Below are positions 1 through 53,113 of a DNA stretch of 53,184 bases, piece after piece. The translations under genes and the position numbers were made by a program. Within the stretch, counting starts at the first letter, position 1, and each line of letters begins with the position of its first letter. Source of the DNA: Patescibacteria group bacterium (GTDB lineage: Bacteria; Patescibacteriota; Gracilibacteria; UBA1369; UM-FILTER-53-11); the NCBI GenBank assembly GCA_038062615.1, contig JBBTWV010000012.1, positions 1 through 53,184 on the forward strand, in the 5' to 3' direction. Under the pieces are notes generated by a model. The model did no database searches. It saw only the letters and a list, made by a program, of their open reading frames with translations, and had not been told where the DNA came from.

Positions 1-220
1 CTGCGGGAGGAGCAGTAATGAGTGCGACACAAGGTCTTCAAAATGTGGGTGATGCCGTCATGATGAAATATGACGAACGAAAAGGTGGTGATGGCGGAGA
101 TAAAAGCGGCGGAGACGCGCCAAGCAGTGCAGGAAATGGCAATCATAAGGATTAGGGTTGCGCTCTTCGAGCGCAGGTTATTTCTTAGGCCGCCCCCGCT
201 TTGGGACGTCATCGAACCTT

Positions 221-386: not shown

Positions 387-412
387 AGCCTGACCTCGCT
401 GAGGCTCGGCCT
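387..412 (+). repeat. GC-rich core repeat (GCR element), short copy
   Basis: AGCCTGACCTCGCTGAGGCTCGGCCT is a variant of the AGCCTCG-N-GCTCGGCCT core seen at 8 other sites. It contains the small hairpin CCTC-GCT-GAGG. Confidence 0.7.
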
Positions 413-416
413 GAGG

Positions 417-433: not shown

Positions 434-1804
434 ATGCTCCAATACCTGGTTGAGAAATTTACCACCCATCAAAAGAAAATTGATGAGTGGTTCAGCAATA
501 TGGAAGAAAAAATCGGTGGGGATCCGGTGTACGCTTCCGTAGATTTACGTAACGCGGGTTACAAAATTGCGCCGGTGGATACGAATATTTTTCCTGGCGG
601 ATTTAATAATCTATGTCCAAGCTCACAGCGTGAAGCGGGAAAACTTTTCCGCGAATATATTCAAAAATACTATGCGGAGGCAAGGCGCATAGCCATCCTG
701 GCAGAAGAACACACCCGTAATTTGTACTATTTTGAAAATCTTTATCATCTCTCTTCGCTCATCAAAGCGGAAGGATTCGAGGTGGAAATTGCCAGCCTCT
801 CAGCAGATCTTCCGCAGGATAAAAATGAATTTGCGACTGCAGAAAAAAATACCATCACGATATGGAAGGCCAGCGTGCTGAATAATATTTTTAAAATATC
901 TCCATTCTCGCCCGATCTCATCCTCGTAAATAATGATTTTTCTGGTGGTGTTCCAGATGCGATCAAAAATATGGTTGCCCCGACGTCAGGTCGGGGCAGT
1001 AATAGCTTAGCCTCGCCACGGCTCGGCCTTATTGTTCAACCTATGGTGCCAACGCCACTTATAGGCTGGCACGCCAGACGGAAGAGTGACCACTTTAGCT
1101 GTTATCAGAGCCTTTCGCATGAGTTCGCGAAGCTGATTGATATTGATCCGTGGATTATTTTTGCGCCGTTTAGTGGAGTGGATGAAATTGACTTTGGCGA
1201 CTCCCAAAGTATGGAAAAACTCGCCGCTAAAGTGGATGAGGTTATAAAAGAAATTCAGCCTAAATATAAAGAGTACAAAATTCCACATGAACCTTTTGTG
1301 TTTGTAAAAAATGATGCGGGAACTTACGGCATGGCGGTTATGACGGCAAAATCAGGAGATGAACTTTTACATCTCAATAAAAAAGCGCGAAACGAAATGA
1401 AAGTTGGAAAAGGTAAACGGCTCGTCACGGAAGTAATTATTCAAGAAGGCATCCCTACCATTGACCGTTTTAAAGGGCTTACTGCCGAGCCCGTCATTTA
1501 CCTGGTGAACAACCAGGTCTCTGGAGCTTTTTTTAGGCTCAACGAAAACGCTGATGACCGCAGCAACCTCAACCAGCCGGGAATGAAATTTGCAAAATTA
1601 TGTTTCCACGAGATGATGGGCTACTCCAGCGAATATAATGGCGAGTGCGACCTAGAATGTTTAGGTATGGTATACAAGAACATAGCTCGAATTGCTTCCT
1701 TGGCAGCGGGATGCGAAATTCGTCAGCTGGAAAAGGTTGCGCCATCCGGGCGCATTATTGCTCTTAGCCTCGCTGAGGCTCGGCCTGAAAGCCAAAAAAC
1801 TTAA
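434..1804 (+). CDS. gshA: Glutamate-cysteine ligase (Acidithiobacillus-type GshA family)
   Basis: 456-aa ORF. The block VYASVDLRNAGYKIAPVDTNIFPGGFNNL matches my recollection of the TIGR02049-type GCL family. It is directly followed by gshB. It carries GCR element insertions at 978-1029 and 1766-1786. Confidence 0.7.
   Translation: MLQYLVEKFTTHQKKIDEWFSNMEEKIGGDPVYASVDLRNAGYKIAPVDTNIFPGGFNNLCPSSQREAGKLFREYIQKYYAEARRIAILAEEHTRNLYYFENLYHLSSLIKAEGFEVEIASLSADLPQDKNEFATAEKNTITIWKASVLNNIFKISPFSPDLILVNNDFSGGVPDAIKNMVAPTSGRGSNSLASPRLGLIVQPMVPTPLIGWHARRKSDHFSCYQSLSHEFAKLIDIDPWIIFAPFSGVDEIDFGDSQSMEKLAAKVDEVIKEIQPKYKEYKIPHEPFVFVKNDAGTYGMAVMTAKSGDELLHLNKKARNEMKVGKGKRLVTEVIIQEGIPTIDRFKGLTAEPVIYLVNNQVSGAFFRLNENADDRSNLNQPGMKFAKLCFHEMMGYSSEYNGECDLECLGMVYKNIARIASLAAGCEIRQLEKVAPSGRIIALSLAEARPESQKT
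978..1029 (+). repeat. GCR element, full-length copy inserted in frame in gshA
   Basis: Hairpin CCCCGAC-GTCAG-GTCGGGG, then spacer CAGTAATAGCTT, then core AGCCTCGCCACGGCTCGGCCT. Translated as PTSGRGSNSLASPRLGL. About 47/52 identical to 1959-2009. Confidence 0.85.
1766..1786 (+). repeat. GCR core copy forming the gshA C-terminal codons
   Basis: AGCCTCGCTGAGGCTCGGCCT is translated as (L)SLAEARP, 6 codons before the stop. Confidence 0.75.
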
Positions 1805-1815
1805 TCGCCAAAGAT

Positions 1816-2808
1816 ATGTACGCCAACCTTCTTTTCATTATTGACCCCCTGGAAACGCTCCATTTGGAGACCGACACCACATTTGCCATTATGGCCGAAG
1901 CGCATAAGCGGGGCCACCATGTGTGGACGGCAACGTCGGATGAGTTGTATATGGATGACCCGACCTCACGGCGTGGCAGTAATGGCTTAGCCTCGCCACG
2001 GCTCGGCCTGATCAGTGCTCAAGTTCCATGCGGACATGTGACGCAGATTTTTATTAAAAATAGGTCCTGGAAAAATGGAAATCAAAAAGATGCGCCGCTG
2101 GAGTCCTTCCCTGTCATCATGATGCGTAAAGATCCGCCTTTTTCCGGCGATTACATTTTGGCTACTTCCCTGCTCTCACTCGTGGATCCTCAAAAAACAT
2201 TTATCATAAATAATCCTGCCGCACTGCGAAACTTCAATGAAAAACTAGGGATTTTCCAGTTTCCGCAATTTATTCCAGAAACCATTGTCAGCAAGAAGAA
2301 TGCAGACTTTAATAGATTTTTGAAGAAACACAAAAAGATCGTCCTCAAGCCGCTTGAAGGTTTTGCAGGGCATGAAATTATTATACTGAGCGCCAATGAC
2401 AAAAATAAGAACTCACTTTTTGAGATGCTCACCAAACACGAAAAACGTTATTTGATGGCGCAAAAATATCTACCTGCCGTAGAAAAAGGCGATAAGCGCA
2501 TTCTCATTTTGGATGGTGAGATACTGGGTCAGCAAAATCGTATAGCTGCAAAAGATGATCACCGCAGCAATATTTCCGCTGGAGGGTCTTCACACCGAAC
2601 CCAGCTGAGTGCACACGAACGAGAAGTTGCCCAAACCGTTGGCCAAGCCCTAAAAGATCAAGGCATCTACTTTGCCGGTTTGGATTTAATTGGTGGATGC
2701 ATTACGGAAATTAATGTTACCAGCCCCACCGGCTTAGTAAAAATAAACGAGCATGAGGGTGCCCATTTAGAGAAGAAAGTGGTAGACTTCCTAGAAAAAT
2801 ATCTATGA
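1816..2808 (+). CDS. gshB: Glutathione synthetase (ATP-grasp)
   Basis: MRKDPPF, LKPLEGFAGHEI, GDKRILILDGE, NISAGGS and GGCITEINVTSPTG are collinear with prokaryotic GshB. It carries the in-frame GCR insertion at 1959-2009. Confidence 0.9.
   Translation: MYANLLFIIDPLETLHLETDTTFAIMAEAHKRGHHVWTATSDELYMDDPTSRRGSNGLASPRLGLISAQVPCGHVTQIFIKNRSWKNGNQKDAPLESFPVIMMRKDPPFSGDYILATSLLSLVDPQKTFIINNPAALRNFNEKLGIFQFPQFIPETIVSKKNADFNRFLKKHKKIVLKPLEGFAGHEIIILSANDKNKNSLFEMLTKHEKRYLMAQKYLPAVEKGDKRILILDGEILGQQNRIAAKDDHRSNISAGGSSHRTQLSAHEREVAQTVGQALKDQGIYFAGLDLIGGCITEINVTSPTGLVKINEHEGAHLEKKVVDFLEKYL
1959..2009 (+). repeat. GCR element, full-length copy inserted in frame in gshB
   Basis: CCCGACCTCACGGCGTGGCAGTAATGGCTTAGCCTCGCCACGGCTCGGCCT is translated as PTSRRGSNGLASPRLGL. 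It interrupts the region aligned to E. coli GshB DLYLINGE. Confidence 0.85.
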
Positions 2809-3596
2809 ACAAGTACCTCTCTATTCTTCGCTTGGGCTGGCTGGACGCAATGGAGTTCCGCACCGAATTTTTTGTAAGCATCGCGGGATGGAGCATCCGG
2901 CTCTTCATTGCCGTTTTTTTGTGGCTTGCGGTAGCCTCTGCACGCGGTGGCACCATCGGTAGCTATTCCTTCAACTCAATTCTCGTTTATTTTTTCATCG
3001 TCCAGACGATTTCAAGTTTCATTTTTTCACGCGTGGGGTTTGAAATGGCCTACGATATTTATCGCGGGGATTTTGCCAACTACATGCTCAAACCGCTCAA
3101 CTACATTGCCTTTCGGCTCATTTACGAGATGAGCAAAAATGCCCTGCGTACCACCATTTCCGCCGCTATATTCGGGGTTATCCTCTTTGCCGCATTTGGA
3201 GGCATCAGCTTGCCGCTTTGGAAAATTCCGCTGGGACTCCTCGCCATGCTGGGAGCCTACGGCGTTAATTCTTGCCTGATCATTATCATTGCCCTCAGCG
3301 CTTTTTGGATCACCAATGCCACACGGCTCACTTTTATTTATTTTGGCATTCTCACCACATTCTCTGGCATGCTCTTCCCCATTGATCTTTTCCCGCCAAA
3401 ATATGCAGCAATTTTTGAGTGGCTACCATTCCCCTATATTTTTTACTTCCCGGCAAAGATCATACAAGCATCGGCATTAACACCGGAGCTTTTGCGCGGA
3501 TTTATTTTTCAGTGGGGATACACATTGGTGCTTGGACTCATTGTAACTCTCATATACTACCGCGGCATAAAGAGGTTTGAAGCCATCGGACGATAA
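2805..3596 (+). CDS. ABC-2 family transporter permease (ABC2_membrane_6-like)
   Basis: 263 aa with about 6 hydrophobic spans. The start overlaps the gshB stop (ATGA). It is followed by a paralogous permease and an ABC ATPase. Confidence 0.7.
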   Translation: MNKYLSILRLGWLDAMEFRTEFFVSIAGWSIRLFIAVFLWLAVASARGGTIGSYSFNSILVYFFIVQTISSFIFSRVGFEMAYDIYRGDFANYMLKPLNYIAFRLIYEMSKNALRTTISAAIFGVILFAAFGGISLPLWKIPLGLLAMLGAYGVNSCLIIIIALSAFWITNATRLTFIYFGILTTFSGMLFPIDLFPPKYAAIFEWLPFPYIFYFPAKIIQASALTPELLRGFIFQWGYTLVLGLIVTLIYYRGIKRFEAIGR

Positions 3597-3605
3597 TATT
3601 TATCA

Positions 3606-21550: not shown

Positions 21551-21722
21551 TTAAGAACTTATCCGCAAATAGGGTTTCGCGACGAAAATTGCAAAATTCG
21601 AGCGAAAAGCATGAACGACCGACGCAGCCGTATCAGGTACCGATACGGCAAGGAGGTCTGAATGCTTTGGAGCCGAATTTTGCAATTTGCAGTAGAAAGC
21701 ATATTTGCGGATAAGTTCTAAA
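21551..21722. repeat. Long-hairpin (LH) element, copy 2
   Basis: Outer arms AGAACTTATCCGCAAATA (21554-21571) and its reverse complement (21702-21719). A 15-bp inner pair AAATTGCAAAATTCG. Apex CCGTATC-AGGTACC-GATACGG. It fills the MTHFS-glyA intergenic gap. Confidence 0.8.
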
Positions 21723-22320
21723 GTTTTCCGCCTGGAGCTAAGGTTTTTGACGATGTTGGTGAATGAAATTCTCGGCATGAGATGAGTCGCTTTTCGGTGA
21801 CGATAAAATCAACGGGCACATCATAAGAGTGCGTTGGCACTTTATCAATCATTTGAAGTTCATACGCCAGGCCGATCGTGGTGCAATGCAACTTCTTTAA
21901 AAAACGATCAAAATAGCCGCCGCCAAAGCCAATCCGGTGACCGGTTTCATCAAAAGCCACTCCAGGAATAATGGCCACATCAATGGAATCCCACTCAGAT
22001 TTTGGCAGACAGTGAACCGGTTCACGAATACCATAAATACCACTTGCCAACTCTTGCGCCGAAGTCAGTTGATACAAACAAATCGCTTCCGATTCAATTT
22101 TTGGCACCACGACGACTTTTTTTCCTAAAAATTGTGCCAACAACAAGTCTGTAGAAACCTCACCTTTGTGCGATAGATAAGTAAAAAACTCACGCGCCCC
22201 CTCAAACGCCGGCATCACCGCAAGCCGCTCAAAAATAGCCTGATCCTTCTGCTTTTTTTCTTCTGGAGTTTGGCCTTCGCGCAAAGCCAACACCGTGCGG
22301 CGAATATCTTCTTTTGTCAC
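21718..22320 (-). CDS. 5-formyltetrahydrofolate cyclo-ligase
   Basis: About 200 aa. KEDIRR..L....EEK....I..RL, VVVPKI, IPGVAFDETGHRIGFGGGYFDRFL. GTG start. The stop lies inside the LH arm. Confidence 0.8.
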   Translation of the reverse strand: MTKEDIRRTVLALREGQTPEEKKQKDQAIFERLAVMPAFEGAREFFTYLSHKGEVSTDLLLAQFLGKKVVVVPKIESEAICLYQLTSAQELASGIYGIREPVHCLPKSEWDSIDVAIIPGVAFDETGHRIGFGGGYFDRFLKKLHCTTIGLAYELQMIDKVPTHSYDVPVDFIVTEKRLISCREFHSPTSSKTLAPGGKL

Positions 22321-22332: not shown

Positions 22333-22336
22333 GCAC

Positions 22337-22420
22337 AGGCCGAGCTAAGGCGAGATGCCGCTGTGAAGCACGCGCGGCCCGAGCCGTGGCGAGGCTAATA
22401 AATAAGTTGTCCGAAGGACA
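22337..22420 (-). repeat. GCR element(s), reverse orientation, intergenic
   Basis: The minus strand reads TGTCC-TTCG-GGACA hairpin, then ACTTATTTATT spacer, then AGCCTCGCCACGGCTCGGGCC, then a second partial core CGCCTTAGCTCGGCCT. Confidence 0.7.
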
Positions 22421-22508
22421 CATTATGAAAAGGCCTGTCCTTAGACTTGAAAATTCTCATTACTGGGGTAAAATAAGCAACGCCTTATTTTGTTAACCAG
22501 CCATCTTT

Positions 22509-23801
22509 ATGCAGGAAAAAGAATCGCTTAATATAAAGGTTATTGTTCCCATTGCCTTGATTTCACTTTTGGCCGGAGCCCTTGGCGGAGCCGCCACCGT
22601 AAAATTCCAAAAAAATGGAAATGATATTTTAGGGAACAACCCAACGCAAATTGTTGAAGAGCGCCATTACGTTGAGGAATCAGAAACCATCAATGCCATA
22701 CAAAAAGTAGCACCGACAGTAATAAGCATTGTGGCCACCAAAGATTTGCAGACCTTCCGCCAGCAGCCTTTTAATCCTTTTTTGAATGATCCTTTCTTCC
22801 GTGATTTTTTGATGCCGATGCCTCAGCCAAAACAAGAGCAAGAGCAGCAAGCACCACCAACCCAGCGTCAAAAAGTGGCTGGCGGAACCGGATTTTTAGT
22901 GAAATCCGACGGCCTCGCCGTAACCAATAAGCATGTGGTGGCGGATACCGATGCCGATTACACCGCTGTTACCAAAGAAGGTAAAGAGTATGATGTTGAG
23001 ATCATAAGCCGTGACCCGGTGAACGATTTGGCAGTAGTTCAACTGCACGAAAAAGTAGAAGAAAAAGCCGGACGTAAAACGGGTGAGAAAAAAGATTTTG
23101 GCCCAAAGCTCAAAGATATGCCGGTGGTTGAACTTGGTGACTCTACAAAACTCCAAGTGGGACAAAAAGTTTTTGCGATTGGGAACGCCCGCGGCGAGTA
23201 CGAAAACAGCGTAACGGCAGGAATTATTTCCGCCATTGGTCGAGAAATTCACGCTTCAGATCAAGGCGGCACATCAGCCGAAACCCTCTCAGGCCTTATA
23301 CAAACAGACGCGGCTATTAACTTTGGAAACTCCGGCGGTCCGCTTATCAATCTTGGTGGCGAAGTTATTGGAATCAATACGGCAATAGACACCGAGGCAA
23401 CCGGCATTGGTTTTGCCATTCCAGCAAATCAAATGAAACCGGCGCTTGCGAGTGTGGAAAAATTTGGACGCATTGTGCGACCAGTTTTGGGCGTAACCCA
23501 TACCATTCTTAATAAAGATAAGGCGCAGGAGCTGAAATTGGATAGCCTGGAATACGGCGCCCTCATTACCGGCGACCGCGCCAAAAAAGAATTTGGCGTC
23601 TTGCCAGGTAGCCCGGCCGAAAAAGCCGGTCTCAAACTGGATGATGTGATTTTGGAGGTGGACGGAGAAAAGGTTACCGAAAAGAATACCTTGCAAAGCA
23701 TGATCCAAAAGCATGCTCCAGGCGATAAGCTCAAGTTAAAAGTCTGGCGCGCGGGAACCACTTTTGAAGTTACGGTGACGCTGGATGAGAAAAAGGAATA
23801 G
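22509..23801 (+). CDS. htrA: HtrA/DegP-family serine protease with PDZ domain
   Basis: N-terminal anchor, TNKHVV, NDLAVV, GNSGGPLINLGGEVIGINTA, PDZ LPGSPAEKAGLKLDDVILEVDGEKV. Confidence 0.85.
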   Translation: MQEKESLNIKVIVPIALISLLAGALGGAATVKFQKNGNDILGNNPTQIVEERHYVEESETINAIQKVAPTVISIVATKDLQTFRQQPFNPFLNDPFFRDFLMPMPQPKQEQEQQAPPTQRQKVAGGTGFLVKSDGLAVTNKHVVADTDADYTAVTKEGKEYDVEIISRDPVNDLAVVQLHEKVEEKAGRKTGEKKDFGPKLKDMPVVELGDSTKLQVGQKVFAIGNARGEYENSVTAGIISAIGREIHASDQGGTSAETLSGLIQTDAAINFGNSGGPLINLGGEVIGINTAIDTEATGIGFAIPANQMKPALASVEKFGRIVRPVLGVTHTILNKDKAQELKLDSLEYGALITGDRAKKEFGVLPGSPAEKAGLKLDDVILEVDGEKVTEKNTLQSMIQKHAPGDKLKLKVWRAGTTFEVTVTLDEKKE

Positions 23802-27209: not shown

Positions 27210-28757
27210 TCACAATTTGGCTTCCTGAGCCAGTACATAACCATCTACCCGCGGTTTCCAGTTGAGATCAGTGGAAACGCCATAAAGCAGTTCGGGTGCA
27301 AAAAGCGGCACGCCAATAACATCATCCACGGTGATTTTATGCATGGCCTGGCGAAGTTTTTCTAAACGGCGATTTTGCTCGGTGGTGGTTTGGCTGATTT
27401 CTATGAGGCGATCCACTTCCGCATTGCGATAATTCCCGCCATTAAATTGTCCAAAATTTTGCCCTGGACTGTGTGCCACGGCAGTGAGGAAATCACCGCT
27501 ATCACCCAAATCCGTCCGCCATCCAAAAAAGTAAAATTCCGACTGACGCTTGGTGATTTTTTGGCTTAAGGCAGAAGCATCCAAAAACTGAAGCGTTACA
27601 TCAATGCCTACTTTCTGGAGTTGATTTTTGACACTCGCGCCAAAAACCTCAAGACCCTTTGGTAGATCCAGCGTGGTGGAAATTCGTGAAAAATTTTCCA
27701 CTTCTTTTACTAACGTCTGTGCCGCTACAATGTCCGGCGAGATGGTAGAAATAGAAGGGTCAAAGCCAAAAATTCCGCTTCCCACAAACTGATTCACCGG
27801 CACCGCAAATCCTTGCGTAAGCTTAGAAAGCTCCGCCGCATTAAGCGCTAAGGCCACCGCACGTCGTAATGATTTGGACTTAAAAGTTTTATCAAAATGA
27901 AACATCAAAAAATTCACCTCCAAACTTGGGAGCGCCTTTAAATCAAAATCAGCAAAATGAAAATTCTTAGCGGTATCCGGCGGAACATTGACGAGAATAT
28001 CAACGCTCTTATTTTGAAGCGCGGCGATTTTTTCTTCTTTTGACCGGAACGTTTGAATGGTCACGTTTTGAAATGCGGGTGCAGATCCCCAATAGCCTTC
28101 AAATCGTTTGAGGGAGAGGAAATTTTTATCTTCATTCTGCTTTATATAAGGGCCGGTTCCGAGAGGCTCGTTTGATTGCTTATCCTCGCTGAGGCTCGGC
28201 CTACTCTTAAAAACCAAAATCGAAGAAAGTTTTTGAAGCAACAGCGGATCAGGTGCACTCGTAATCACATGAAAAATCTGCTCATCTATTTTTTGGACGC
28301 CTTCAATATTTTGCACAAGATCTTTTACACTCGACGCGGGATTTTCTTTTGCCTGTTGTAAGGAAGAAAGCACATCATCCACGGCAAGCGTGGTTCCATC
28401 ATGAAAGCGCACCGCCGGACGCAGACGAAATTCCCAAGTGAAGTCATCTAAAGAACCATAAGAAACTGCCAGCGCCGGCTCAATTTGCAAATTGGCATTC
28501 ACCCGCACAAGCGGCTCGTACATATGCAAAAGTCGTGCGCGAGAATCAATATCATTGGCAAGCGGACTCAAACTTATACCAGGGCCCGATAAGCCAATAA
28601 CGAGTGTTTGTTGCGAAGTCTGGTGGAATTTTTGAAATATCCAAGAAGCAGCACCATCAAATGATTTTTCAAAAAAAAGCTTGCCCGAAACCGCCAGCAA
28701 AATTAAAAAATACAAGCTGAATAGTACAATTTTAGTGAAACGGTGCAAGGCAATCAT
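27210..28757 (-). CDS. ABC transporter substrate-binding protein, family 5 (peptide/nickel type)
   Basis: Start set at MIALHRFTKIVLFSLYFLILLAV. The upstream part of the ORF translates repeat DNA (DCFALLAMT). It is SBP_bac_5-like along its length and carries a GCR core at 28182-28202. Confidence 0.65.
   Translation of the reverse strand: MIALHRFTKIVLFSLYFLILLAVSGKLFFEKSFDGAASWIFQKFHQTSQQTLVIGLSGPGISLSPLANDIDSRARLLHMYEPLVRVNANLQIEPALAVSYGSLDDFTWEFRLRPAVRFHDGTTLAVDDVLSSLQQAKENPASSVKDLVQNIEGVQKIDEQIFHVITSAPDPLLLQKLSSILVFKSRPSLSEDKQSNEPLGTGPYIKQNEDKNFLSLKRFEGYWGSAPAFQNVTIQTFRSKEEKIAALQNKSVDILVNVPPDTAKNFHFADFDLKALPSLEVNFLMFHFDKTFKSKSLRRAVALALNAAELSKLTQGFAVPVNQFVGSGIFGFDPSISTISPDIVAAQTLVKEVENFSRISTTLDLPKGLEVFGASVKNQLQKVGIDVTLQFLDASALSQKITKRQSEFYFFGWRTDLGDSGDFLTAVAHSPGQNFGQFNGGNYRNAEVDRLIEISQTTTEQNRRLEKLRQAMHKITVDDVIGVPLFAPELLYGVSTDLNWKPRVDGYVLAQEAKL
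28182..28202 (-). repeat. GCR core copy in frame inside the SBP gene
   Basis: The plus strand reads ATCCTCGCTGAGGCTCGGCCT. The gene translates it as SRPSLSED. Confidence 0.75.
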
Positions 28758-28808
28758 TCGTTTAAGTATATCACTTAACGGACTCATTGAACAGATATGC
28801 ACACCCAA

Positions 28809-28835
28809 CGTCATTGCGAGCAAAGCGAAGCAATC
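28809..28835 (-). repeat. LAMT hairpin element, copy C
   Basis: GTCATTGCGAGCAAAGCGAAGCAATCT is the left arm of the composite palindrome 28809-29050. Confidence 0.8.
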
Positions 28836-28856
28836 TGCAGACCTGGAACTAGGGAA

Positions 28857-29010
28857 CCTCTGAAAAACATCTTTCCTGCTGCACTTTACAAATTTCTGCT
28901 GCAAATTTTTCACAGCTCGTCACCGTATCTTATCTGATACGGTTTCCTCGCTGTCCAAAATTTTCGCTATAAATTTGTAAAGTTCGCTACGAAAATCTGT
29001 TTTTCAGAGG
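28857..29010. repeat. Long-hairpin (LH) element, copy 3 (reverse relative to copy 1)
   Basis: Outer arms CCTCTGAAAAACA/TGTTTTTCAGAGG. Inner arms CTTTACAAATTT/AAATTTGTAAAG. Apex CCGTATC-TTATCT-GATACGG. The reverse complement shares CTGAAAAACAGATT, AGCGAAAA and CGTATCAG with copy 1. Confidence 0.8.
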
Positions 29011-29016
29011 TTCCCT

Positions 29017-39895: not shown

Positions 39896-39909
39896 AAGAT
39901 TATAGGTTG

Positions 39910-39956
39910 CGCCCTTCGGGCGCATTATTTGCTTAGCCTCGTGACGAGCTCGGCCT
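39910..39956 (+). repeat. GCR element, full-length copy at the folD-purF junction
   Basis: Hairpin GCGCC-CTTCG-GGCGC, then spacer ATTATTTGCTT, then core AGCCTCGTGACGAGCTCGGCCT. The core encodes the last folD codons (DFRPSSSRG-stop) on the minus strand. Confidence 0.75.
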
Positions 39957-40823
39957 AAAGTCAGAAATTCTTTTTGCGGCGCGCACCACATTTTCCATGA
40001 GGCAGGCCACCGTCATAGGGCCGACGCCACCCGGCACCGGAGTGAGCCACGAAGCTTTGCGTTTTACATTCTCAAAATCAACGTCGCCAACCAGCCTATT
40101 TTCAACTTTTGTGACGCCCACGTCAATGACGATAACTCCTTTTTTAACCATATTGGCGGTAATCATTTTGGGCTTGCCCACGGCGGCCACCAAAATATCG
40201 GCGCGTTTGGTAAAATCCGCAAGATTTTTGGTCTTAGAATTACAAATGGTGACCGTAGCATCGCGGTTAATAAGCATGACAGCCAGCGGCTTGCCAACAA
40301 TGTTGCTGCGACCAACGATGACGGCGTATTTTCCTGCTGCGGAAATTTTATAATATTCCAACATGCGGATAATGCCGCGCGGCGTACAAGGAGCCAGATT
40401 TTCAAATTCTGTGGCCAAAAACATCTTACCCAAGTTGTAGGCGCCAAAACCGTCCACGTCCTTCATGGGGTCAATAGCGCGAATAACCAGCGGCGCGTCC
40501 ATATGTGGTGGGAGTGGAAGCTGCACCAAAATGCCATGCACCATCTTATCTTTATTGAATTTTTCAATAAGAGTGATGAGTTTTTGCGTCGTCGTTTTGG
40601 AGCTGAGCCTTTCGAGCTCTTCTTGAATTCCCGTGCGCTCTGCCGCCAAACGTTTTTGGCGAATATACGAAAGACTCGCGGGATTTTCACCGACGAGAAT
40701 AATAACGAGCTTGGGCTTAATGCTTTTTTTGGCGAGTTTTTGAACCTCATGGCTTACCTCCTTGAGCAAGGAATCAGAAACAAGCCGGCCGTCGAGGAGA
40801 TGAGAATTCATGGGCAAGCCCAT
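39933..40823 (-). CDS. folD: Bifunctional methylene-THF dehydrogenase/methenyl-THF cyclohydrolase
   Basis: ILVGENPASLSYI, GILVQLPLP, GRSNIVGKPLA, PVPGGVGPMTVA. Confidence 0.95.
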   Translation of the reverse strand: MGLPMNSHLLDGRLVSDSLLKEVSHEVQKLAKKSIKPKLVIILVGENPASLSYIRQKRLAAERTGIQEELERLSSKTTTQKLITLIEKFNKDKMVHGILVQLPLPPHMDAPLVIRAIDPMKDVDGFGAYNLGKMFLATEFENLAPCTPRGIIRMLEYYKISAAGKYAVIVGRSNIVGKPLAVMLINRDATVTICNSKTKNLADFTKRADILVAAVGKPKMITANMVKKGVIVIDVGVTKVENRLVGDVDFENVKRKASWLTPVPGGVGPMTVACLMENVVRAAKRISDFRPSSSRG

Positions 40824-44552: not shown

Positions 44553-47500
44553 ATGATTAATCGTGTGACGCAACAACTGGAGGCCGCGAGTTTTCTGAAG
44601 CATATGGAAGCGCATGCCGAAGAATATCCTCAAGATGAAACAGGTGCGTTACATGCCAGAATAGATGAGAGGCGCGGCAGAACTCGTCTTGAGTGCGCGG
44701 CGGCGTGTTTTGAAGATAATGAAACTTTTCCTGACATGAGTCGGTTGTATCTTGAGCATACCGCGACTACAAGAGAACGTATTTCAAGAGTCACGGATGC
44801 ATTGCGAGATACCGATACCGTTTCACTGCCGTCGTGGCTGACGCTTCGCCGGTCACAAACAAGATTTTTATCGAAATTGCGCGACTATTTTTCGGGCGAT
44901 GTTTTTAGAAGATCCGGCTTTGTAAAATATCCTCCGGGAATCGGTAAGACAGTATTGATCGCTCTTATGATACGTTCTCTCATTGAGCGCATTAACGGAA
45001 CCTCTCTTGTTTTGAGTCAGCGTCGAAAGATCAATGATCAAAACTACCATGAAATTTTATCTTTACAGGACGAGGGCGCGAGCGTAAAAATGGCAGCAAG
45101 CGTTTGCCCAGAGGAAACACCCGATGTTACTATCGCCGCATATACAAAGCTCATTCTGGATAAAGCTGCCAACCTGTCCAGACGCATTTTAAAGGATCAC
45201 TATGACGTGATTTTTTTGGATGAATGCCACAGATCTTTCGGCTTTGAAGCCATCAGAGTTTTACGCGAATATTATCCCGACAGTGTTCTTGTAGGTTTAT
45301 CTGCAACTCCCTATATAGGAGCATCGTTTTCAAGCCAAACACAAATGCGTTCTGCATTTCATTATATTGAAGGAGAAATAGACAACCTTCCCTTGCCGGA
45401 AGCCTGTGCAAGCGGTGAGATCGCTCCTTTGCGAACCATGACGGTTATGCTTAAGGGCACCGATGATGATTCTGAGGATTCGCCTGAGGAAGACGCTGAT
45501 GAATGTGAACCCCCGTTTTTGAGTGTTGATACTAAGACTAGAATTGCAACTGCAATTTGCAAGGATTATATCCCGGCCGGTGAGCAGGGAATTATTTTTC
45601 TTCGGAACAGGCTTGAGGCAAGTTTAGTTGCCGATGCTCTTAAAGCAGCCGGTCTTAAAGCCGAATTTATTTGTGGCGGCGCAGGGACAGCATTTTCTCA
45701 AACAACATATATGAGAAGAAAGGAAGTCGAAGACAGACTTCGTCGATTTCAAGCCGGTGATACACAATATATCACGAATGTTGAGTCTTTAATTGAAGGT
45801 GCAAACTTTGAAAATTTAAAACATGTTATTAATTTAAGTGATACCCGTTCAGTCTGGGAGTTTGAACAGATGATCGGTCGCGCAACGCGATTGGATCCAA
45901 AAGACCCCGAAAAAATCGCTACTATTTGGGATACGGTAGTGGAAGGGAGGAAAGGAGGCCGGTGTACCCTGATCGGCTTGGCGGCTTTTTATGGGCAGCA
46001 TAAAGAAGAATATCTGAACGGAGAGGTAATCTTTGGTCCGCCAGAAAGGAAACAAGTTTGCATGCCTAGCTTTGCTCCATTTTCCTTGTTCGGCATCGAT
46101 GCCGAATTATCAGAAATAATTTTAGCCGAACAGATAGATAGAATAGCGACCCCGATGGATCACGAATATTTCAAAAAAATTGATGAAAATGTGAAGCCGG
46201 ATTTGGCTGCGTTTGCACGCGCTGCCGGAGTTGGAGGCGCACGAAGCTTAACAGGCAGTCATCTTTCCTGGAGCGCAACATGCATGAACGGCGAGACTAT
46301 TACATTTGAAACCTATGTTGCGCGGTGGGCTGCAGCTATGCAAATGGCAAAAGACACTACGTCGGCTAGGGAAAACATATGTGACTTTGTATATAAACTG
46401 CTGCATTTTGCCGGATGCACCGTGAAAAAAATGGACGCACAGTATTATGAAGATACTGAAGGTAATGTAAAACCTGATATGCGCCGGTTTGCAGGGGAGG
46501 CGGGTTTGGAAAGCCCTGCAGAATTAACGACGACACATTTTTCAGAAAAGATCACGTGCGAAAGCGGAAAGTATTTGAGCTTGCAAGCCTACGTGATTAA
46601 GTGTGCGCTTAAGACGAAAAGGGCTAAAACCCATGAAGAGGCCAAAGGGAACCAGGGAAGGCTTTTGCGTGAACTTTTACAGCGTTGCGGGTACGCCGTG
46701 AAAGAAAAAGCCGAAGTCAAGATCGAAATGGATGCGGCATACTTTAAAAACATTCAAGGCAATGTAATTCCCGATATGCAAGGCTTTGCCAATGCGGCCG
46801 GTGTTAAGAGTCCGGCAGATTTAACGACAACTGATATTCAGAAAAAAAGCAGATGTCAAAACGGGGAAATTCCTAATTTAGAAACATACATTTGTCGATG
46901 GGCAGTGAGTCTTGGGCATGCAAAAAATAATGACGATGTGCACTCGAAAATTTCCAAAATGCTCGATCAGCTTTTACGATACTGCGGATATGCAATCGCC
47001 GAAAAGATTGAGTTTGAGGAAATGGATGAGGCTTATTTTAAGAACATGAAAGGTACTGTAGAGCCGGATGTCGCTGGTTTCGTGGCTGCTGCCGGAGTTT
47101 CATCTGCTGCAGATCTTGCAGGCGTACAACACCGTTCTGTAAGAAGCAGGTGTAAAAATGGAGAAAGTCCAATGTGGCAAACCTATGTTGCAAGGTGGGC
47201 AAAAGCGCTTAAGCATGTAAAAAATGCAAAGGATGCACTCAAGGAATTTGATAAAATCAGCTGTAAGTTTTTGAGATATTGCGGATATGAGGTTGAAGAA
47301 AAAGAGGAATTTTTGAAAATGGACAAAGAGTACTTCATGAAAGTGCGACAAAATCTCATGCCAGACGTTGCTGGTTTTCTGGCTGCGGCAGGTGTTATGA
47401 GCGTTGCCGATCTTAGGGGGAGAAGGCATTTTGATGTTGAAAGCAGATGTAGTAATGGCGAAATTATTTCTTTGAAAAGGTTTATCTGTCGATGGTCAGT

Positions 47501-48101
47501 AGCCACGGGAAGAGTAAAAATCCAGAAGGACGCTGAAAGATGGTGCACACGTTTGCTAAGAGAATTTGTTGAATGGTATCAATCTCTCGATCTCTCGATC
47601 CCTCCGGCGGCGAATGTCCTTTCCGATGTGGTCTGCAAAGAACTTGAACCGGTTGTTAGAAAATCTGCCGAACGTTATAGAAAATTCGTAGATGTTGGCG
47701 ATATTGTGAACGAAGTTTTTTTGAGGATCTTGGAAGTGTTGCAGCAAGATCCATCAGCCAGATTTGAAGCAGATGCTCTTGAGGAGCTTGTTGGTGAAGC
47801 CGCGGCACATTTGAGAAGAGATTCAGGAGACCACGGGGATGTGGAGTATATCGATACCTTCGCTCCACATAATCGATTTGATGGAGATTCTAAAGAAACC
47901 GCAGGTCACGTAAGTTTAATCAGCGATGTGGTAGAGAGACTTTCCGAGCCTGCAAGAACAATTATCTCAATGCAATTGGCTGGACATTCCGAGCAAGAAA
48001 TCGCAACAGCTTTAAAAATCAAAAAACCAAAAGTAGCATCGTTGATTAAAAATGCTCATGAAGATTTTCGCAGATTGTATCAAATCAAAGAAGATTCCTA
48101 A
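44553..48101 (+). CDS. SF2 helicase (ResIII/DEAH-like) fused to 5 tandem ~97-aa repeats and a sigma-70-like C-terminal module
   Basis: Motif I PPGIGKT (about 44931), II DECH (45219-45230), III SAT, VI QMIGRATR (45867-45890). Repeats span 46155-47583. The C-terminus has DIVNEVFLRILE (region-2-like) and LSEPARTIISMQLAGHSEQEIATALKIKKPKVASLIKNAHEDFRRL (region-4 HTH-like). Confidence 0.75.
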   Translation: MINRVTQQLEAASFLKHMEAHAEEYPQDETGALHARIDERRGRTRLECAAACFEDNETFPDMSRLYLEHTATTRERISRVTDALRDTDTVSLPSWLTLRRSQTRFLSKLRDYFSGDVFRRSGFVKYPPGIGKTVLIALMIRSLIERINGTSLVLSQRRKINDQNYHEILSLQDEGASVKMAASVCPEETPDVTIAAYTKLILDKAANLSRRILKDHYDVIFLDECHRSFGFEAIRVLREYYPDSVLVGLSATPYIGASFSSQTQMRSAFHYIEGEIDNLPLPEACASGEIAPLRTMTVMLKGTDDDSEDSPEEDADECEPPFLSVDTKTRIATAICKDYIPAGEQGIIFLRNRLEASLVADALKAAGLKAEFICGGAGTAFSQTTYMRRKEVEDRLRRFQAGDTQYITNVESLIEGANFENLKHVINLSDTRSVWEFEQMIGRATRLDPKDPEKIATIWDTVVEGRKGGRCTLIGLAAFYGQHKEEYLNGEVIFGPPERKQVCMPSFAPFSLFGIDAELSEIILAEQIDRIATPMDHEYFKKIDENVKPDLAAFARAAGVGGARSLTGSHLSWSATCMNGETITFETYVARWAAAMQMAKDTTSARENICDFVYKLLHFAGCTVKKMDAQYYEDTEGNVKPDMRRFAGEAGLESPAELTTTHFSEKITCESGKYLSLQAYVIKCALKTKRAKTHEEAKGNQGRLLRELLQRCGYAVKEKAEVKIEMDAAYFKNIQGNVIPDMQGFANAAGVKSPADLTTTDIQKKSRCQNGEIPNLETYICRWAVSLGHAKNNDDVHSKISKMLDQLLRYCGYAIAEKIEFEEMDEAYFKNMKGTVEPDVAGFVAAAGVSSAADLAGVQHRSVRSRCKNGESPMWQTYVARWAKALKHVKNAKDALKEFDKISCKFLRYCGYEVEEKEEFLKMDKEYFMKVRQNLMPDVAGFLAAAGVMSVADLRGRRHFDVESRCSNGEIISLKRFICRWSVATGRVKIQKDAERWCTRLLREFVEWYQSLDLSIPPAANVLSDVVCKELEPVVRKSAERYRKFVDVGDIVNEVFLRILEVLQQDPSARFEADALEELVGEAAAHLRRDSGDHGDVEYIDTFAPHNRFDGDSKETAGHVSLISDVVERLSEPARTIISMQLAGHSEQEIATALKIKKPKVASLIKNAHEDFRRLYQIKEDS
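46155..47583 (+). repeat. Five in-frame tandem coding repeats (276-297 nt each)
   Basis: Units start at 46155, 46431, 46728, 47022 and 47319. Each opens MD.(E/A/Q)Y(F/Y) and carries V.PD+..F...AGV.S.A(D/E)L, C.NGE, Y+.RWA and L(L/R).CGY. Confidence 0.85.
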
Positions 48102-48823: not shown

Positions 48824-48844
48824 AGTGAATGAGTTACGATTACT

Positions 48845-50155: not shown

Positions 50156-50701
50156 CTATTTTTTCCTTACCTGCGTAAAATCCAATTCCACCGGCGTCTC
50201 GCGACCAAAAATCGTAATCATCACCTTCACTTTGCCTTTTTCTTCATCCACGCTGTTTACAATACCATCGTAGTTTACAAATGGACCATCCAACACCACC
50301 ACGTTGTCCCCAATCTGGAAATCAATCTTAAATTTGGGCTCAATGGCACCCATGCGGGTCTTTACTACATTCCATTCTTCGGCAGAAACCGGCACAGGAA
50401 TGGTTCCAGATCCCACAAAGCCCGTCACGTTAGGCGTGTTGCGAACCACATACCAAGACTCATCCGTTACCAGCATATCCACAAGAACATAACCGGGAAA
50501 AAGCTTCTTTTTTTCTTCTTTGGGCTGGCCTTTTTTAATCACAATTTGGCTTTCTTTTGGCACCACCACATCAAAAATATAATCCTGCATACTGGTGGAC
50601 TCTATACGCTGGAGGAGAGCCTCGCGAACGGCGTCTTCATAACCGGAATAGGTGTGGACAACATACCAGTGGCGTCCGGTACCGGGAGCTTGCTTTGGCA
50701 T
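50156..50701 (-). CDS. nusG: Transcription termination/antitermination protein NusG
   Basis: WYVVHTYSGYE, PGYVLV, and the KOW motif GDNVVVLDGPFVNYDGIV. Confidence 0.95.
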   Translation of the reverse strand: MPKQAPGTGRHWYVVHTYSGYEDAVREALLQRIESTSMQDYIFDVVVPKESQIVIKKGQPKEEKKKLFPGYVLVDMLVTDESWYVVRNTPNVTGFVGSGTIPVPVSAEEWNVVKTRMGAIEPKFKIDFQIGDNVVVLDGPFVNYDGIVNSVDEEKGKVKVMITIFGRETPVELDFTQVRKK

Positions 50702-50713: not shown

Positions 50714-50935
50714 TTAGCTCTGAGATAAAGTAAAAAGATAGCGGTACCCAAAATTGAAAATGAAATCAATACCGGCAATGGCGAGGGCAGAAATACCTAC
50801 AAATACCACAACAAGGATGCAAATATTAACCGCACGATGACGGGTTGGCCACGCCACCTTACCAAGTTCCTGAAGACTTTCTACAAAATAATTGACGAAA
50901 GGGTTTCTTTTTTTAGGTTCCGTATTTTCAGACAT
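50714..50935 (-). CDS. secE: Preprotein translocase subunit SecE
   Basis: About 73 aa. EL.KV.WP motif (ELGKVAWPTR) followed by a single TM span. It lies directly upstream of nusG. Confidence 0.8.
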   Translation of the reverse strand: MSENTEPKKRNPFVNYFVESLQELGKVAWPTRHRAVNICILVVVFVGISALAIAGIDFIFNFGYRYLFTLSQS

Positions 50936-50958
50936 AAATGTGGAGTTCACTTATTTGT

Positions 50959-51003
50959 AGCCTCGCCACGGCTCGGCCTCCTTTAAAAAGCGGCTAGGCC
51001 GAG
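50959..51003 (+). repeat. GCR core plus 8-bp hairpin
   Basis: AGCCTCGCCACGGCTCGGCCT is followed by ..AGGCCGAG, which pairs with CTCGGCCT. Confidence 0.7.
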
Positions 51004-51038: not shown

Positions 51039-51114
51039 GGAATTTGCTCGCCGAATAGAAATTTTCCTTCGCTCCGTCACGCCTTGCGTGACTACGCTTC
51101 GGACCGCAAATTTC
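51039..51114. repeat. LH-related hairpin element, copy 4 (short, different apex)
   Basis: Arms AATTTGC..CCGAA / TTCGG..GCAAATT. Apex GTCACGC-CTT-GCGTGAC. The reverse complement, GCGAAATTTGCGGTCCGAAGCG, resembles copy 1 GCGAAAACGCCGAAGCG. Confidence 0.5.
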
Positions 51115-51138
51115 GCACTTATCCACAAGGTTATTTTC

Positions 51139-51147
51139 TGGTATAAT
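51139..51147 (+). promoter_or_regulatory. Extended -10 (TGgTATAAT), 6 nt before the ATG (leaderless configuration)
   Basis: TGGTATAAT-GGTGGG-ATG(51154). Confidence 0.5.
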
Positions 51148-51153
51148 GGTGGG

Positions 51154-52107
51154 ATGCAAAAAAAGACAAAAAACAGGCTTTTAAGAGAACTGCTGATTTT
51201 TTTGCCGGTGCTCGGCATTATTTTGGGCTTAGACTCCATCTACCTTGCGCATGCCGCGGGAGGTTTTACTCCGGTTTCTGACGGACTCTGCGGGGAAGGC
51301 GCATTCCCATGCCCCGAAGGTGAAACTGGCGTTGCCATAGCCAAAAGCTTGGGTGCCCGCATTTTTGATAATACTCGTTATATCATCGGTGCCGTATCCG
51401 TGATTCTCATCGTAGTAGCCGGAGTGAAGTTGATTACGAGCGGCGGCAATGAAGAAGTTTTTGAAAAGCAAAAAACGACGCTCATTTATTCCGTCATTGG
51501 ACTCTTTATGGTTGGCGCCGCTGGCGATCTCGCCATGATTTTTGAAGTAGACCGCGGCGGATTCCTTAAAGATCCTAACGTCTCTATTCAAAAAAGTCGG
51601 CTGTTTACGCGGACGGCAGAAGTCGTTCTCACCTTTATCAAATACATTATTGGCAGTATTTCCGTGCTTTCTATTGTGAGAAATGGCTTGCGTCTTGTGG
51701 TTTTGGGAGGCAACGAAGAAGAAGTGGGCAAGGACAAAAAGAATATTTTCTACGGCTTACTGGGTTTGGTAATTATTTTGATGGCGAACCCCATTGTGAA
51801 CAAAGTATTTTTCAAAATTGATACCACCAAATATCCAGGACTGGAGCCGGTTAGGCCGGGAATTGATACCGCGCGTTTGATTCAGGAAATTACCGGCATT
51901 ACCAATTTGATTGCGGCGATTGCCGGACCTGCCGCGCTGCTTTCATTGGTAGCTGGAGGACTCATGTATGTGCTTGCCGCAGGCGAAGAAGAAAAAACCG
52001 GCAAAGCCAAAAAACTTATGACGTGGTCACTTGTGGGACTCGTGATTATTTACGGCGCGTTTGCCATTGTGAGCACGTTTGTAGCCAGACAGTTTGAAGG
52101 GATTTAG
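51154..52107 (+). CDS. Triple TrbC/VirB2-like (T4SS-pilin-like) domain membrane protein
   Basis: Signal/anchor, then three units of TM-helix, G(G/A)(N/E)EE..K.K loop, TM-helix. Examples: IIGAVSVILIVVAGVKLITSGGNEEVFEKQKTTLIYSVIGLFMV and LLSLVAGGLMYVLAAGEEEKTGKAKKLMTWSLVGLVIIYG. Confidence 0.6.
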   Translation: MQKKTKNRLLRELLIFLPVLGIILGLDSIYLAHAAGGFTPVSDGLCGEGAFPCPEGETGVAIAKSLGARIFDNTRYIIGAVSVILIVVAGVKLITSGGNEEVFEKQKTTLIYSVIGLFMVGAAGDLAMIFEVDRGGFLKDPNVSIQKSRLFTRTAEVVLTFIKYIIGSISVLSIVRNGLRLVVLGGNEEEVGKDKKNIFYGLLGLVIILMANPIVNKVFFKIDTTKYPGLEPVRPGIDTARLIQEITGITNLIAAIAGPAALLSLVAGGLMYVLAAGEEEKTGKAKKLMTWSLVGLVIIYGAFAIVSTFVARQFEGI

Positions 52108-52117
52108 TCTTCAAAAT

Positions 52118-53113
52118 ATGAACAAAATATTTATACAATTTCTTACGTTTTTAATTGCCACGAGCCTTTTACTCGGCATCAATTCTTTTGCCATAGCCGC
52201 TGAGGAAACAAAAGGTGCCAGCACTCCGGTGACAGACTTGAATGAAGTTTTAGGCAAAACGCCGCTGAGCAATTTTGAAGGAAAAATTCATCAACTTTCC
52301 AGCGTGGATCCCGGTGCCGATGTCATTACCACCATCATTTTTACGGCAATCGATTTCATGAAATATTTGATTGGTGCCATTGCCGTAATTTTCATTACGG
52401 TCAGCGGCATCAAACTTATTACGTCTGGCAAAAAAATCGATGAAGTTTCGGAAAAAGAAAAAGAAAATCTTAAATTTATTATTTACGGACTTATTTTGAT
52501 TATTACCGCGGATGAGCTGGTGACCAAAGTATTTTTTGGCGATTACGGCGAGTGCGTTGCCAGCGCTTCCAATGCGCAAGAATGCGCCAAAGTGGGCGGC
52601 AGTTTGGTGAAAGGCGTTTATAGTTTGATTTTGGCCATGATGGCAACGGTAGGAATTTTCGTAGTAGTGCTCTCGGGTTTCCGGCTGGTTACTTCTACCG
52701 GAGATGAAGAAGTCATCAAAAAACAAAAATCACGGATGACCATGGCCGTGGTAGGACTCATCGTTGCGGCGCTTGGAGAATTTGTGGTGAAAGGAATTGT
52801 TTTTCCCGAAGCCGGAACACAAGGCATTGACGTGGAAGCCGCCAAAAAACTCGTCTACAACTTTACTAACTTTGTAGCGGCGTTTATTGGAGCATCAGCG
52901 TTTGTGATGCTCTTTTACGGCGGGTACTTGTATGTGATGTCCTTTGGCAACGAAGAGCAAACCGGCAAGGCCAAAAAAATCATCGTTGGCGCCATTGTTG
53001 GCATGCTCATCGCATTTGCGGCCTTTGGGGTGGTGGCAACAGTAACTTCACTCAACCCAGGAAGAACCAACATCAACTTGCCGCAAAATTTACCTGGACT
53101 CCCCAATAAGTAG
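52118..53113 (+). CDS. Triple TrbC/VirB2-like domain membrane protein, tandem paralog
   Basis: Same three-unit layout, for example LIGAIAVIFITVSGIKLITSG, FRLVTSTGDEEVIKKQKSRM and YLYVMSFGNEEQTGKAKKIIVGAIVGMLIAF. Confidence 0.6.
   Translation: MNKIFIQFLTFLIATSLLLGINSFAIAAEETKGASTPVTDLNEVLGKTPLSNFEGKIHQLSSVDPGADVITTIIFTAIDFMKYLIGAIAVIFITVSGIKLITSGKKIDEVSEKEKENLKFIIYGLILIITADELVTKVFFGDYGECVASASNAQECAKVGGSLVKGVYSLILAMMATVGIFVVVLSGFRLVTSTGDEEVIKKQKSRMTMAVVGLIVAALGEFVVKGIVFPEAGTQGIDVEAAKKLVYNFTNFVAAFIGASAFVMLFYGGYLYVMSFGNEEQTGKAKKIIVGAIVGMLIAFAAFGVVATVTSLNPGRTNINLPQNLPGLPNK

Follow-up and report, generated by a model that had tools for sequence, protein, structure and literature searches.

Near-identical in-frame segments in gshA and gshB of a Patescibacteria group bacterium as probable copies of a compact palindromic repeat family

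Introduction

Why do the two genes of glutathione synthesis in one bacterium carry nearly the same stretch of DNA, read in the same frame? The question is raised by gshA and gshB in a 53,184-nucleotide (nt) stretch from a Patescibacteria group bacterium (GenBank assembly GCA_038062615.1, contig JBBTWV010000012.1), the whole of which was analyzed and is called the window here. A preliminary description had offered two answers: a mobile element like the Rickettsia palindromic elements (RPEs), sitting in a genome like those of the candidate phyla radiation (CPR), or a shared peptide co-opted as a docking or regulatory loop common to the two enzymes. CPR bacteria have very small, gene-dense genomes that are usually described as poor in mobile DNA. 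We consider it highly probable that both segments belong to a family of short palindromic repeats, non-autonomous and RPE-like in behavior.

Results

The gene at 434..1804 (+) encodes a glutamate-cysteine ligase of the PF08886/TIGR02049 type (GshA, 456 amino acids [aa]) and contains two in-frame copies of the element; the gene at 1816..2808 (+) encodes a glutathione synthase (GshB, 330 aa; PF02951, PF02955, and NF003573) and contains one. Profile matches of both proteins are full-length and above the curated cut-off (PF08886 on open reading frame [ORF] 434..1804, E 1.5e-135; TIGR02049 matches as well), so the hosts are indeed both enzymes of the pathway, as first described. Positions 969-1032 of gshA and 1949-2012 of gshB are 88% identical over 64 nt. 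The near identity of the segments had been recognized before, but the earlier count of about 5 differences in 52 positions needs correction: 6 of 52 positions differ between 978-1029 and 1958-2009, and the similarity extends to the 64 nt just given. Both segments are read in one codon phase, as MVAPTSGRGSNSLASPRLGL in ORF 434..1804 and as DDPTSRRGSNGLASPRLGLIS in ORF 1816..2808, and the ORF translations bear out the common peptide ...PTS(G/R)RGSN(S/G)LASPRLGL... that had been proposed.

Are these segments additions to the two enzymes or old parts of them? The segment is absent from 12 of 12 GshA and 12 of 12 GshB homologues aligned, the nearest homologues of both proteins being encoded in metagenome bins of Candidatus Peregrinibacteria or Gracilibacteria. 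The PF08886 match on GshA is broken into two stretches at the insert, and the nearest GshA homologues have 413-426 aa versus 456 aa here. The solved structures 1GSA (Escherichia coli GshB) and 3K1T (GshA) have gaps exactly at the insert sites, 20 aa long in 3K1T. Alignment to 1GSA puts the GshB insert right after the part aligned with E. coli DLYLINGE, in agreement with its earlier placement at that segment as extra relative to the canonical enzyme. The GshB of one relative, P0122, is 84% identical, has 314 aa versus 330, and lacks the segment; where it has a lone Glu, GshB of the window has DDPTSRRGSNGLASPRLGLIS (21 aa), a net gain of 20 residues.

The same is seen at the DNA level. Contig L001, which encodes P0122 and is 84-91% identical to window positions 1169-3862, lacks the 60 nt at 1956-2015 of gshB and shows a clean empty site at the junction of TATATGGA and AGCACAAG. 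It also lacks a second copy near the 3' end of gshA, again with a clean empty site, the insertion there amounting to 57 nt net; the C terminus of GshA reads ...RQL, EKVAPSGRIIALSLAEARPE, SQKT, and stop in the window versus ...RQLQSQKT and stop in the relative. In metagenome-assembled genome (MAG) JACPMA01, the syntenic gshAB locus (L053, 21 kb) has zero element copies. The gshA and gshB segments are recent in-frame insertions that postdate the split from the L001 relative, whose flanks are 84-91% identical. Might they instead be an ancestral loop lost elsewhere, or a chimeric mis-assembly of a repeat? The probability of either is close to negligible: no aligned homologue has the segment, the empty sites lie in a relative as similar as L001, all three insertions keep the frame, and an independent assembly of the same organism, European Nucleotide Archive contig L002 (99.8% identical), has all three gshA/gshB copies. 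A run of 10 N at L002:1983-1992 falls in gshA, where the gene call is truncated and has no Pfam match; a gshA frameshift in L002 was considered and rejected, the N run coming merely from scaffolding.

How do the enzymes accommodate the inserts? In AlphaFold 2 (AF2) models, the mean predicted local distance difference test score (pLDDT) is 86.4 for GshB and 80.2 for GshA. It falls below 50 at residues 54-66 of GshB (within the insert, 47-67) and in a 3-residue dip at 251-253, and at residues 179-198 (internal insert) and 437-456 (C-terminal insert) of GshA; among segments of at least 3 residues with pLDDT < 50, all the long ones are inserts. Superposition of the GshB model on 1GSA gives template modeling (TM) scores of 0.88/0.92 and a root mean square deviation of 2.0 Å, and that of the GshA model on 3K1T gives TM scores of 0.79/0.85. 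The most plausible view of the inserts is that they form disordered loops or tails on the surface and would leave the enzyme fold intact, and the low-confidence loops and tails of the models, like the gaps in 1GSA and 3K1T, agree with the surface position that had been considered for them.

From 5' to 3', the unit is composed of AAGG(A/T)TG, hairpin 1 with a 6-10-bp stem, a linker of 8-10 nt, and the 23-mer TTAGCCTCGCTGCGGCTCGGCCT, followed by G. The linker is GCACTGTA in one genome and ATTAATTGC in others, and the central loop of the 23-mer occurs as CTGC, CCGC, CCAC, or CTGA. There are subtypes of 54, 57, and 60 nt, longer stems giving the latter two. All three lengths are multiples of three, intergenic copies included, which may be chance or may be selection for frame neutrality of the element. 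At L035:1204-1318, two copies of differing subtypes stand head to tail without a spacer (...GGCCTG followed directly by AAGGATG...); the unit length is put at 54 nt because of this tandem junction, which also hints that an element end can act as an insertion site.

The stem of hairpin 1 takes many forms, including GCGCCC/GGGCGC, TCCCGCC/GGCGGGA, CCCAGCC/GGCTGGG, GCGTCC/GGACGC, and CCCCGAC/GTCGGGG. Pairing holds in 98% of cells, and 5 of the 7 pairs show two-sided changes in 47 cells, a result that none of 500 shuffles reaches; the structure of hairpin 1 is maintained by compensatory change. The 3' module (helix 2) is nearly invariant and therefore yields no covariation evidence. RNAalifold on the raw MAFFT alignment overlooked hairpin 1 because the subtypes were out of register, and a hand-given structure with an alignment to a covariance model (CM) was used.

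This model, R1, was built from 25 clean copies and scanned over the window, where it returned nine copies or fragments, their E values ranging between 7e-20 and 1e-3. With up to 3 mismatches allowed, the 22-mer core TAGCCTCGCCACGGCTCGGCCT is matched five times in the window and not once in 100 dinucleotide-preserving shuffles. The element is thus present beyond the two segments first noticed, and the preliminary inventory, right as far as it went, had left out the gshA 3' copy (1731-1787), those at 391-416 and 152-205, and four more in the window.

Three copies lie within the glutathione genes, all on the + strand. The first, at 971..1030 of gshA (CM 969-1033; 50.6 bits, E 5.5e-14), is the 60-nt in-frame insertion that forms codons 180-199, and its hairpin 1 is intact (CCCCGAC/GTCGGGG, extended to 10 bp; -28.6 kcal/mol, z -3.1). 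The second, at 1731..1787 (CM 1731-1790), is the 57-nt in-frame insertion at the 3' end of gshA, 5 codons ahead of the stop, and the top CM match of the window (69.3 bits, E 6.6e-20); it belongs to another subtype, with a GCGCC hairpin and a CTGA loop, and its 3' half is read in a different phase. The third, in gshB at 1949..2015 (CM 1949-2013, insertion proper 1956-2015; 42.3 bits, E 2.2e-11), has a decayed hairpin 1 whose fold is no better than that of shuffles (z -0.1).

Two fragments precede them on the same strand. A degenerate copy at 152..205 (18.1 bits, E 1e-3), at the stop codon of an upstream 187-aa ORF that is also seen in L002, retains the 5' module and a hairpin (GCGCTC/GAGCGC) and has a decayed 3' module. 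The copy at 391..416 consists of the 3' module alone (TGACCTCGCTGAGGCTCGGCCTG; 17.8 bits, E 1.2e-3) and sits directly between a separate 170-nt palindromic element (220-387), resembling a MITE (a miniature inverted-repeat transposable element), and the TATAAT at 417-422 with the gshA start. Fragments 152-205 and 391-416 were also considered as parts of a single copy that the 170-nt element had split, an idea rejected because the junctions fit poorly.

The remaining copies are scattered over the window. An intergenic one at 22372..22426 (-; hairpin GTCC/GGAC; 33.3 bits, E 1.5e-8) lies between the divergent ORFs 21718..22320(-) and 22509..23801(+), and another at 50935..50983 (+; 25 bits, E 6.6e-6), whose hairpin 1 is weak and whose 3' module is exact (an exact 22-mer match), lies between the divergent ORFs 50156..50701(-) and 51088..52107(+). 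A partial copy at 28170..28206 (+; 30.7 bits, E 1e-7), made of linker and 3' module, is inside and antisense to the SBP_bac_5 gene 27210..28913(-) (PF00496), where it is in frame as KSRPSLSEDKQSN, in a variable loop directly ahead of the conserved GTGPY; this loop is 6 aa longer than in the nearest homologues. A full copy at 39901..39960 (+; 56.7 bits, E 6.1e-16) marks the junction of folD and purF, both on the - strand. Its reverse strand supplies the final 8 codons and the TAA stop of folD (...DFRPSSSRG and stop), and the copy stops roughly 6 nt upstream of where purF truly starts (MCGIIG, 39895). At the syntenic folD/purF junction of L017, the spacer is unrelated to the element.

Sequences like -10 boxes stand directly 3' of two copies. 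One is the TATAAT at 417-422, only 11 nt from the gshA start codon; at the other, TGCTACAAT lies at about 22330-22345 (-), with TACAAT next to 22372. The element or its insertion sites may supply or adjoin promoters.

How widely is the family distributed? The DNA pattern TTAGCCTCG-N4-GGCTCGGCCT was scanned against one genome per species for 185,579 species and gave 50 loci, all but one in four Peribacteria/Peregrinibacteria MAGs (CAYHVY01, JACPMA01, CAYHNW01, and JACRID01). CM R1 found 61 strong matches in 355 kb of these loci, and the number of copies in the four genomes exceeds 55. The names of all carrier MAGs but one, like the nearest homologues of GshA and GshB, uphold the earlier view that the genome is of CPR type, and the family is one that expanded within a single Peribacteria clade (Peregrinibacteria, CPR). 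Just one core match, L041:380-423, falls outside the bins of Peribacteria/Peregrinibacteria, on CAZZGX010000045.1 in a bin labeled Candidatus Saccharibacteria; it has the window-type linker GGTAATGGC without hairpin 1 and could be a mis-binned contig or a transfer. IMG/VR viral contigs contain zero exact core matches, and a phage vector for the element was dropped as an explanation on this ground. At gathering thresholds, Rfam matched only three tRNAs in the whole window, leaving the element unmatched, and a permissive Rfam scan of 100-2100 returned nothing relevant; on these scans a known RNA family was rejected. No description of such an element from Peribacteria, CPR, or Patescibacteria emerged from full-text literature searches, and a paper on five complete Peribacteria genomes does not mention such elements.

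Would the family rather be a cis element that benefits its host, such as an mRNA stabilizer or terminator like repetitive extragenic palindromic (REP) sequences, a nucleoid-protein site, or a promoter donor, with the coding copies a side effect or a means of tuning gshAB? Such a role would fit the compensatory changes that keep hairpin 1 paired, the nearly invariant 3' module, the -10-like boxes that directly follow two copies, the several copies that adjoin stop codons, and the clustering of five copies at one operon. However, the corresponding loci of close relatives are without copies, different genomes have their copies at different positions, the gshB copy has lost its intact hairpin through decay, no Rfam family matches, and the conservation of hairpin and module is equally expected if an enzyme that mobilizes the element recognizes them. 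We regard a host-beneficial role as improbable.

The gshA and gshB copies are each other's nearest relatives. They are alike in hairpin type (CCCGAC), linker (GCAGTAAT), and loop (CCAC), and they lie 980 nt apart in the same orientation; among all copies of the window and the loci, the CCCGAC hairpin with the GCAGTAAT linker is unique to these two, while the CCAC loop recurs elsewhere. Probably one was derived from the other, or both from a common nearby source. Could ectopic gene conversion or duplication, with no transposition at all, have made the gshB segment from the gshA segment or the reverse? Such a local event would account for one copy only, whereas dozens are dispersed in several genomes; the flanks have no homology to guide conversion except ATATGG adjoining the 5' end; and a mobile element that hopped locally would be expected to leave just such a pattern. 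A purely local origin is thus about as improbable as the cis role, and dispersal of a repeat family is the reading we retain.

How often does the element reside in genes? For a copy to count as inside an ORF, the open frame had to span 150 codons or more, with 20 or more of them ahead of the copy and 15 or more behind it. By this measure 28 of 64 copies (44%) are in long ORFs, 13 lying along the coding strand and 15 against it. Pfam confirms ten hosts: a UvrD-type helicase-nuclease, PolX-PHP, L-aspartate oxidase (NadB), DnaG, glucose-6-phosphate dehydrogenase (G6PD), TsaD, the ATP synthase gamma subunit, dihydrofolate reductase (DHFR), FolD, and the SBP_bac_5 binding protein. Around the element, the domain match is longer than the profile in PolX, G6PD, DHFR, and FolD and is split in TsaD. 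Besides gshB, folD provides a second filled/empty pair, the JACPMA gene (L017) having a 42-nt insert and the window gene none, and also the reverse case, in which the JACPMA gene lacks the copy that supplies the 3' end of the window folD.

Two reading frames account for 26 of the 28 intragenic copies: one on the top strand, giving K(D/V)APxGRxxxLAS(L/P)RLGL, and one on the bottom strand, giving RPSRSEA(N/K)TxxRPxGA(S/T). TAG in TTAGCC and TAA in its complement close one frame per strand in every subtype, and in the 60-nt subtype of the window just one of the three forward frames is open. Hence, the common frame of the gshA and gshB copies is forced and needs no functional explanation. Intragenic and other copies are equally near the consensus (median 57.8 versus 64.2 bits, p 0.86). 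The gshA and gshB copies differ by 4 synonymous substitutions and by another 5 that fall in 4 non-synonymous codons; with no enrichment for synonymous changes, the insert peptide appears to be under no selection.

These results bear directly on the proposal of a shared docking or regulatory loop, here taken as an 18-20-aa loop serving as a docking, regulatory, or assembly motif that couples both glutathione enzymes. In its favor, two enzymes that serve one pathway and are encoded by one operon have an almost identical peptide read in a common frame, and both inserts are exposed loops in the AF2 models that could bind a partner. But the same DNA is also found between genes and within 25 or more other long ORFs, the ten Pfam-confirmed hosts being unrelated; one intragenic copy in two is antisense to its gene and gives the unrelated peptide RPSRSEANT...; the third copy, at the gshA 3' end, is read in another phase; a relative with an 84% identical GshB does without the insert; substitutions between the two copies show no synonymous bias; and the single open forward frame explains the common frame. 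The docking or regulatory loop of the preliminary description is therefore very improbable, and the repeat family remains the explanation that we follow below.

Other repeats and repeated genes were seen in the same DNA. The MITE-like palindromic family of about 170 nt occurs at window 220-387 and 28849-29018, at L024:5058-5225, and at L051:1-143, with 76-96% identity across genomes, terminal inverted repeats of 21-25 nt ((C)TAGGGAACCTCTGAAAAACAG...), and a palindrome in its interior, around CCGTATCAGATAAGATACGG. Both in the window and in L024, its right end has a copy of the 54-60-nt element no more than 50 nt away. A third repeat consists of hairpins of the form TGTCATTGCGAG-(loop)-(C)GAAGCAATCTAG, at 28811-28854, 29015-29050, 48843-48878, and 50106-50149; two of them, in inverted orientation, bracket the 170-nt copy at 28849-29018. 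Within ORF 44553..48101 (1182 aa), positions 46846-47500 comprise three tandem 297-nt units, 64-72% identical, that give 99-aa protein repeats, and the adjacent, overlapping ORFs 51088..52107 and 52094..53113, 339 aa each, have repeated segments in common and look like tandem paralogues. In MAG JACPMA01, a GC-rich segment of 167 nt with long-range complementarity is 83% identical between L005:2206-2371 and L031:3206-3371. Rfam gives no match to this segment at E <= 0.01. The segment contains AGGCCGAGCC, which is like the element's 3' end in complement, and could be an undescribed structured RNA.

Discussion

How would such a family come to occupy both glutathione genes? Copies land in intergenic DNA and in genes, in both orientations, and those that last inside genes are whole codons in a stop-free frame, as are the 60 and 57 nt in gshA and the 60 nt in gshB. 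The inserts are presumably translated, because splicing would put no constraint on the frame. They would be tolerated rather than useful, disordered loops and tails sparing the fold, and the identical peptide in two enzymes of the glutathione pathway would then have no pathway meaning.

Several points weigh against this account. Neither a transposase nor an autonomous partner turned up: the window and 52 loci (355 kb), compared all against all by blastn, revealed no larger repeat with the element's ends and yielded just orthologous synteny and the separate 170-nt MITE-like family. Five of the nine window copies fall in the first 2 kb, around and inside gshAB, a clustering that dispersal of a mobile repeat does not cover. 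Copy numbers rest on 8-kb pieces of the carrier MAGs, and the scan pattern fixes 19 bases of the 3' module, making the invariance of that module across genomes partly circular. Residence in ORFs was scored from stop-to-stop frames with no gene caller, 12 hosts being checked by profiles. Translation of the inserts is deduced, not observed, and their low pLDDT is partly due to the fact that no other alignment row covers them. Finally, of 19 loci whose skew is clear, 14 have the element's top strand on the C-rich strand, as is also the case for 8 of the 9 window copies (the + strand of the window has negative GC skew from 5 to 45 kb), but this bias is weak (p ~0.04-0.06) and confounded by gene orientation, a trend and not proof.

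What could move the element? A search for target-site duplications (TSDs), as direct repeats of 2-5 nt at all plausible boundaries, found at best 7-8 of 40 copies with one versus 4-5 expected. The terminal inverted match of AAGGATGCGCC with the complement of the 3' end CAGGCCGAGCC is 7 of 11 positions, judged by eye from the consensus. Outside the unit, the flank has only a weak A/T preference at position -1 (0.6 bit), with no conserved target tetranucleotide evident. Where a locus has two or three copies, they point the same way in 7 of 8 cases, inverted doublets are absent, and 8 of the 9 window copies are on one strand. The mover might be a hairpin-recognizing, single-strand HUH/Y1 transposase acting in trans, as with REP sequences and their REP-associated tyrosine transposases (RAYTs) or with elements derived from insertion sequences (ISs) of the IS200/IS605 group. 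Such an enzyme fits best because hairpins lie near both ends, there is no TSD, one pair stands in tandem, and the strand bias is weak; even so, an HUH/Y1-type mover is speculative and on the doubtful side.

How does the element compare with known systems? RPEs, RPE-1 to RPE-10, were reportedly described by Ogata et al. in 2000. They are repeats of 100-150 bp in intergenic and coding DNA of Rickettsiales (PMC1779305), and nearly half of the 44 copies in R. conorii are intragenic and in frame with housekeeping ORFs (PMC10969869). The family described here is likewise a dispersed palindromic repeat found between and within protein-coding genes of a small, reduced genome; its in-frame intragenic copies are missing from orthologues and sit in housekeeping enzymes where the fold is predicted to be tolerant; its intragenic share, 28 of 64 versus nearly half of 44, is similar; and both lack a known transposase. 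In contrast to RPEs, it is two to three times shorter (54-60 nt versus 100-150 bp), has a bipartite build of a covarying hairpin and an invariant 23-mer, lives in CPR/Peregrinibacteria of groundwater and not in intracellular Alphaproteobacteria, and uses both orientations equally, the distinction being drawn from RPE descriptions. The RPE-like behavior suggested at the outset (in frame, dispersed, palindromic) thus stands, and membership in the RPE family does not, by size and by taxon: the element is a very compact selfish DNA of the RPE-like kind and not an RPE family member.

REP sequences, bacterial interspersed mosaic elements (BIMEs), and the REP doublets (REPINs) mobilized by RAYTs are also short, GC-rich, imperfect palindromes in many copies, with neither clear terminal inverted repeats (TIRs) nor TSDs, with compensatory stem changes, and with a possible strand bias. 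However, REPs are extragenic by definition, whereas 44% of our copies are inside ORFs; unlike REPINs, the element forms no inverted doublets, neighboring copies being co-oriented or in tandem; and no RAYT gene turned up, the carrier MAGs being in 8-kb pieces and the genome scan aimed at the DNA pattern. Palindrome-associated transposable elements (PATEs) derived from IS200/IS605 share two different hairpins near the ends, the lack of clear TIRs and of TSDs, and head-to-tail tandems (as in L035), but known PATEs are far longer, the element has no evident target tetranucleotide, and no TnpA turned up in the carrier pieces, so the likeness is structural and not enzymatic. Bacterial MITEs that fuse in frame with host ORFs, among them ERIC, BOX, Correia, and Anabaena MITEs (reviewed in PMC10969869), are likewise short, non-autonomous repeats with occasional in-frame fusions. 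The element differs from them in the absence of a TSD, in having a 7/11 terminal inverted match at best, in a much higher intragenic fraction, and in the absence of a cognate IS with the same ends from 355 kb of carrier DNA.

What does the family mean for these bacteria? A selfish repeat has apparently entered core genes of replication, energy, folate, tRNA modification, and redox functions in several related genomes without destroying them. The Rickettsia-type answer to the lack of a safe insertion site would then have arisen independently outside the intracellular Alphaproteobacteria, in a far more compact form. The element would explain part of the lineage-specific loops in CPR proteins, and annotators and structure predictors should be warned that such 18-20-aa loops may be repeat-derived. 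Strains could be tracked by the presence or absence of its copies, the gshB alleles with and without the insert lend themselves to testing how much loop insertion an enzyme tolerates, and the bipartite element is a handle for finding the enzyme that moves it. Tentatively, and with more doubt than confidence, we also consider a stronger possibility: an active or recently active element of 18-20 codons, possibly the smallest in-frame-inserting one described, selected to be codon-neutral, moved by a hairpin-recognizing CPR single-strand transposase, and supplying loops to this day. Selection for codon neutrality is suggested because 54, 57, and 60 nt are all whole codons and two frames are stop-free. 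If this were true, the element would be a continuing source of new surface loops in essential proteins of genomes otherwise thought to be static and streamlined.

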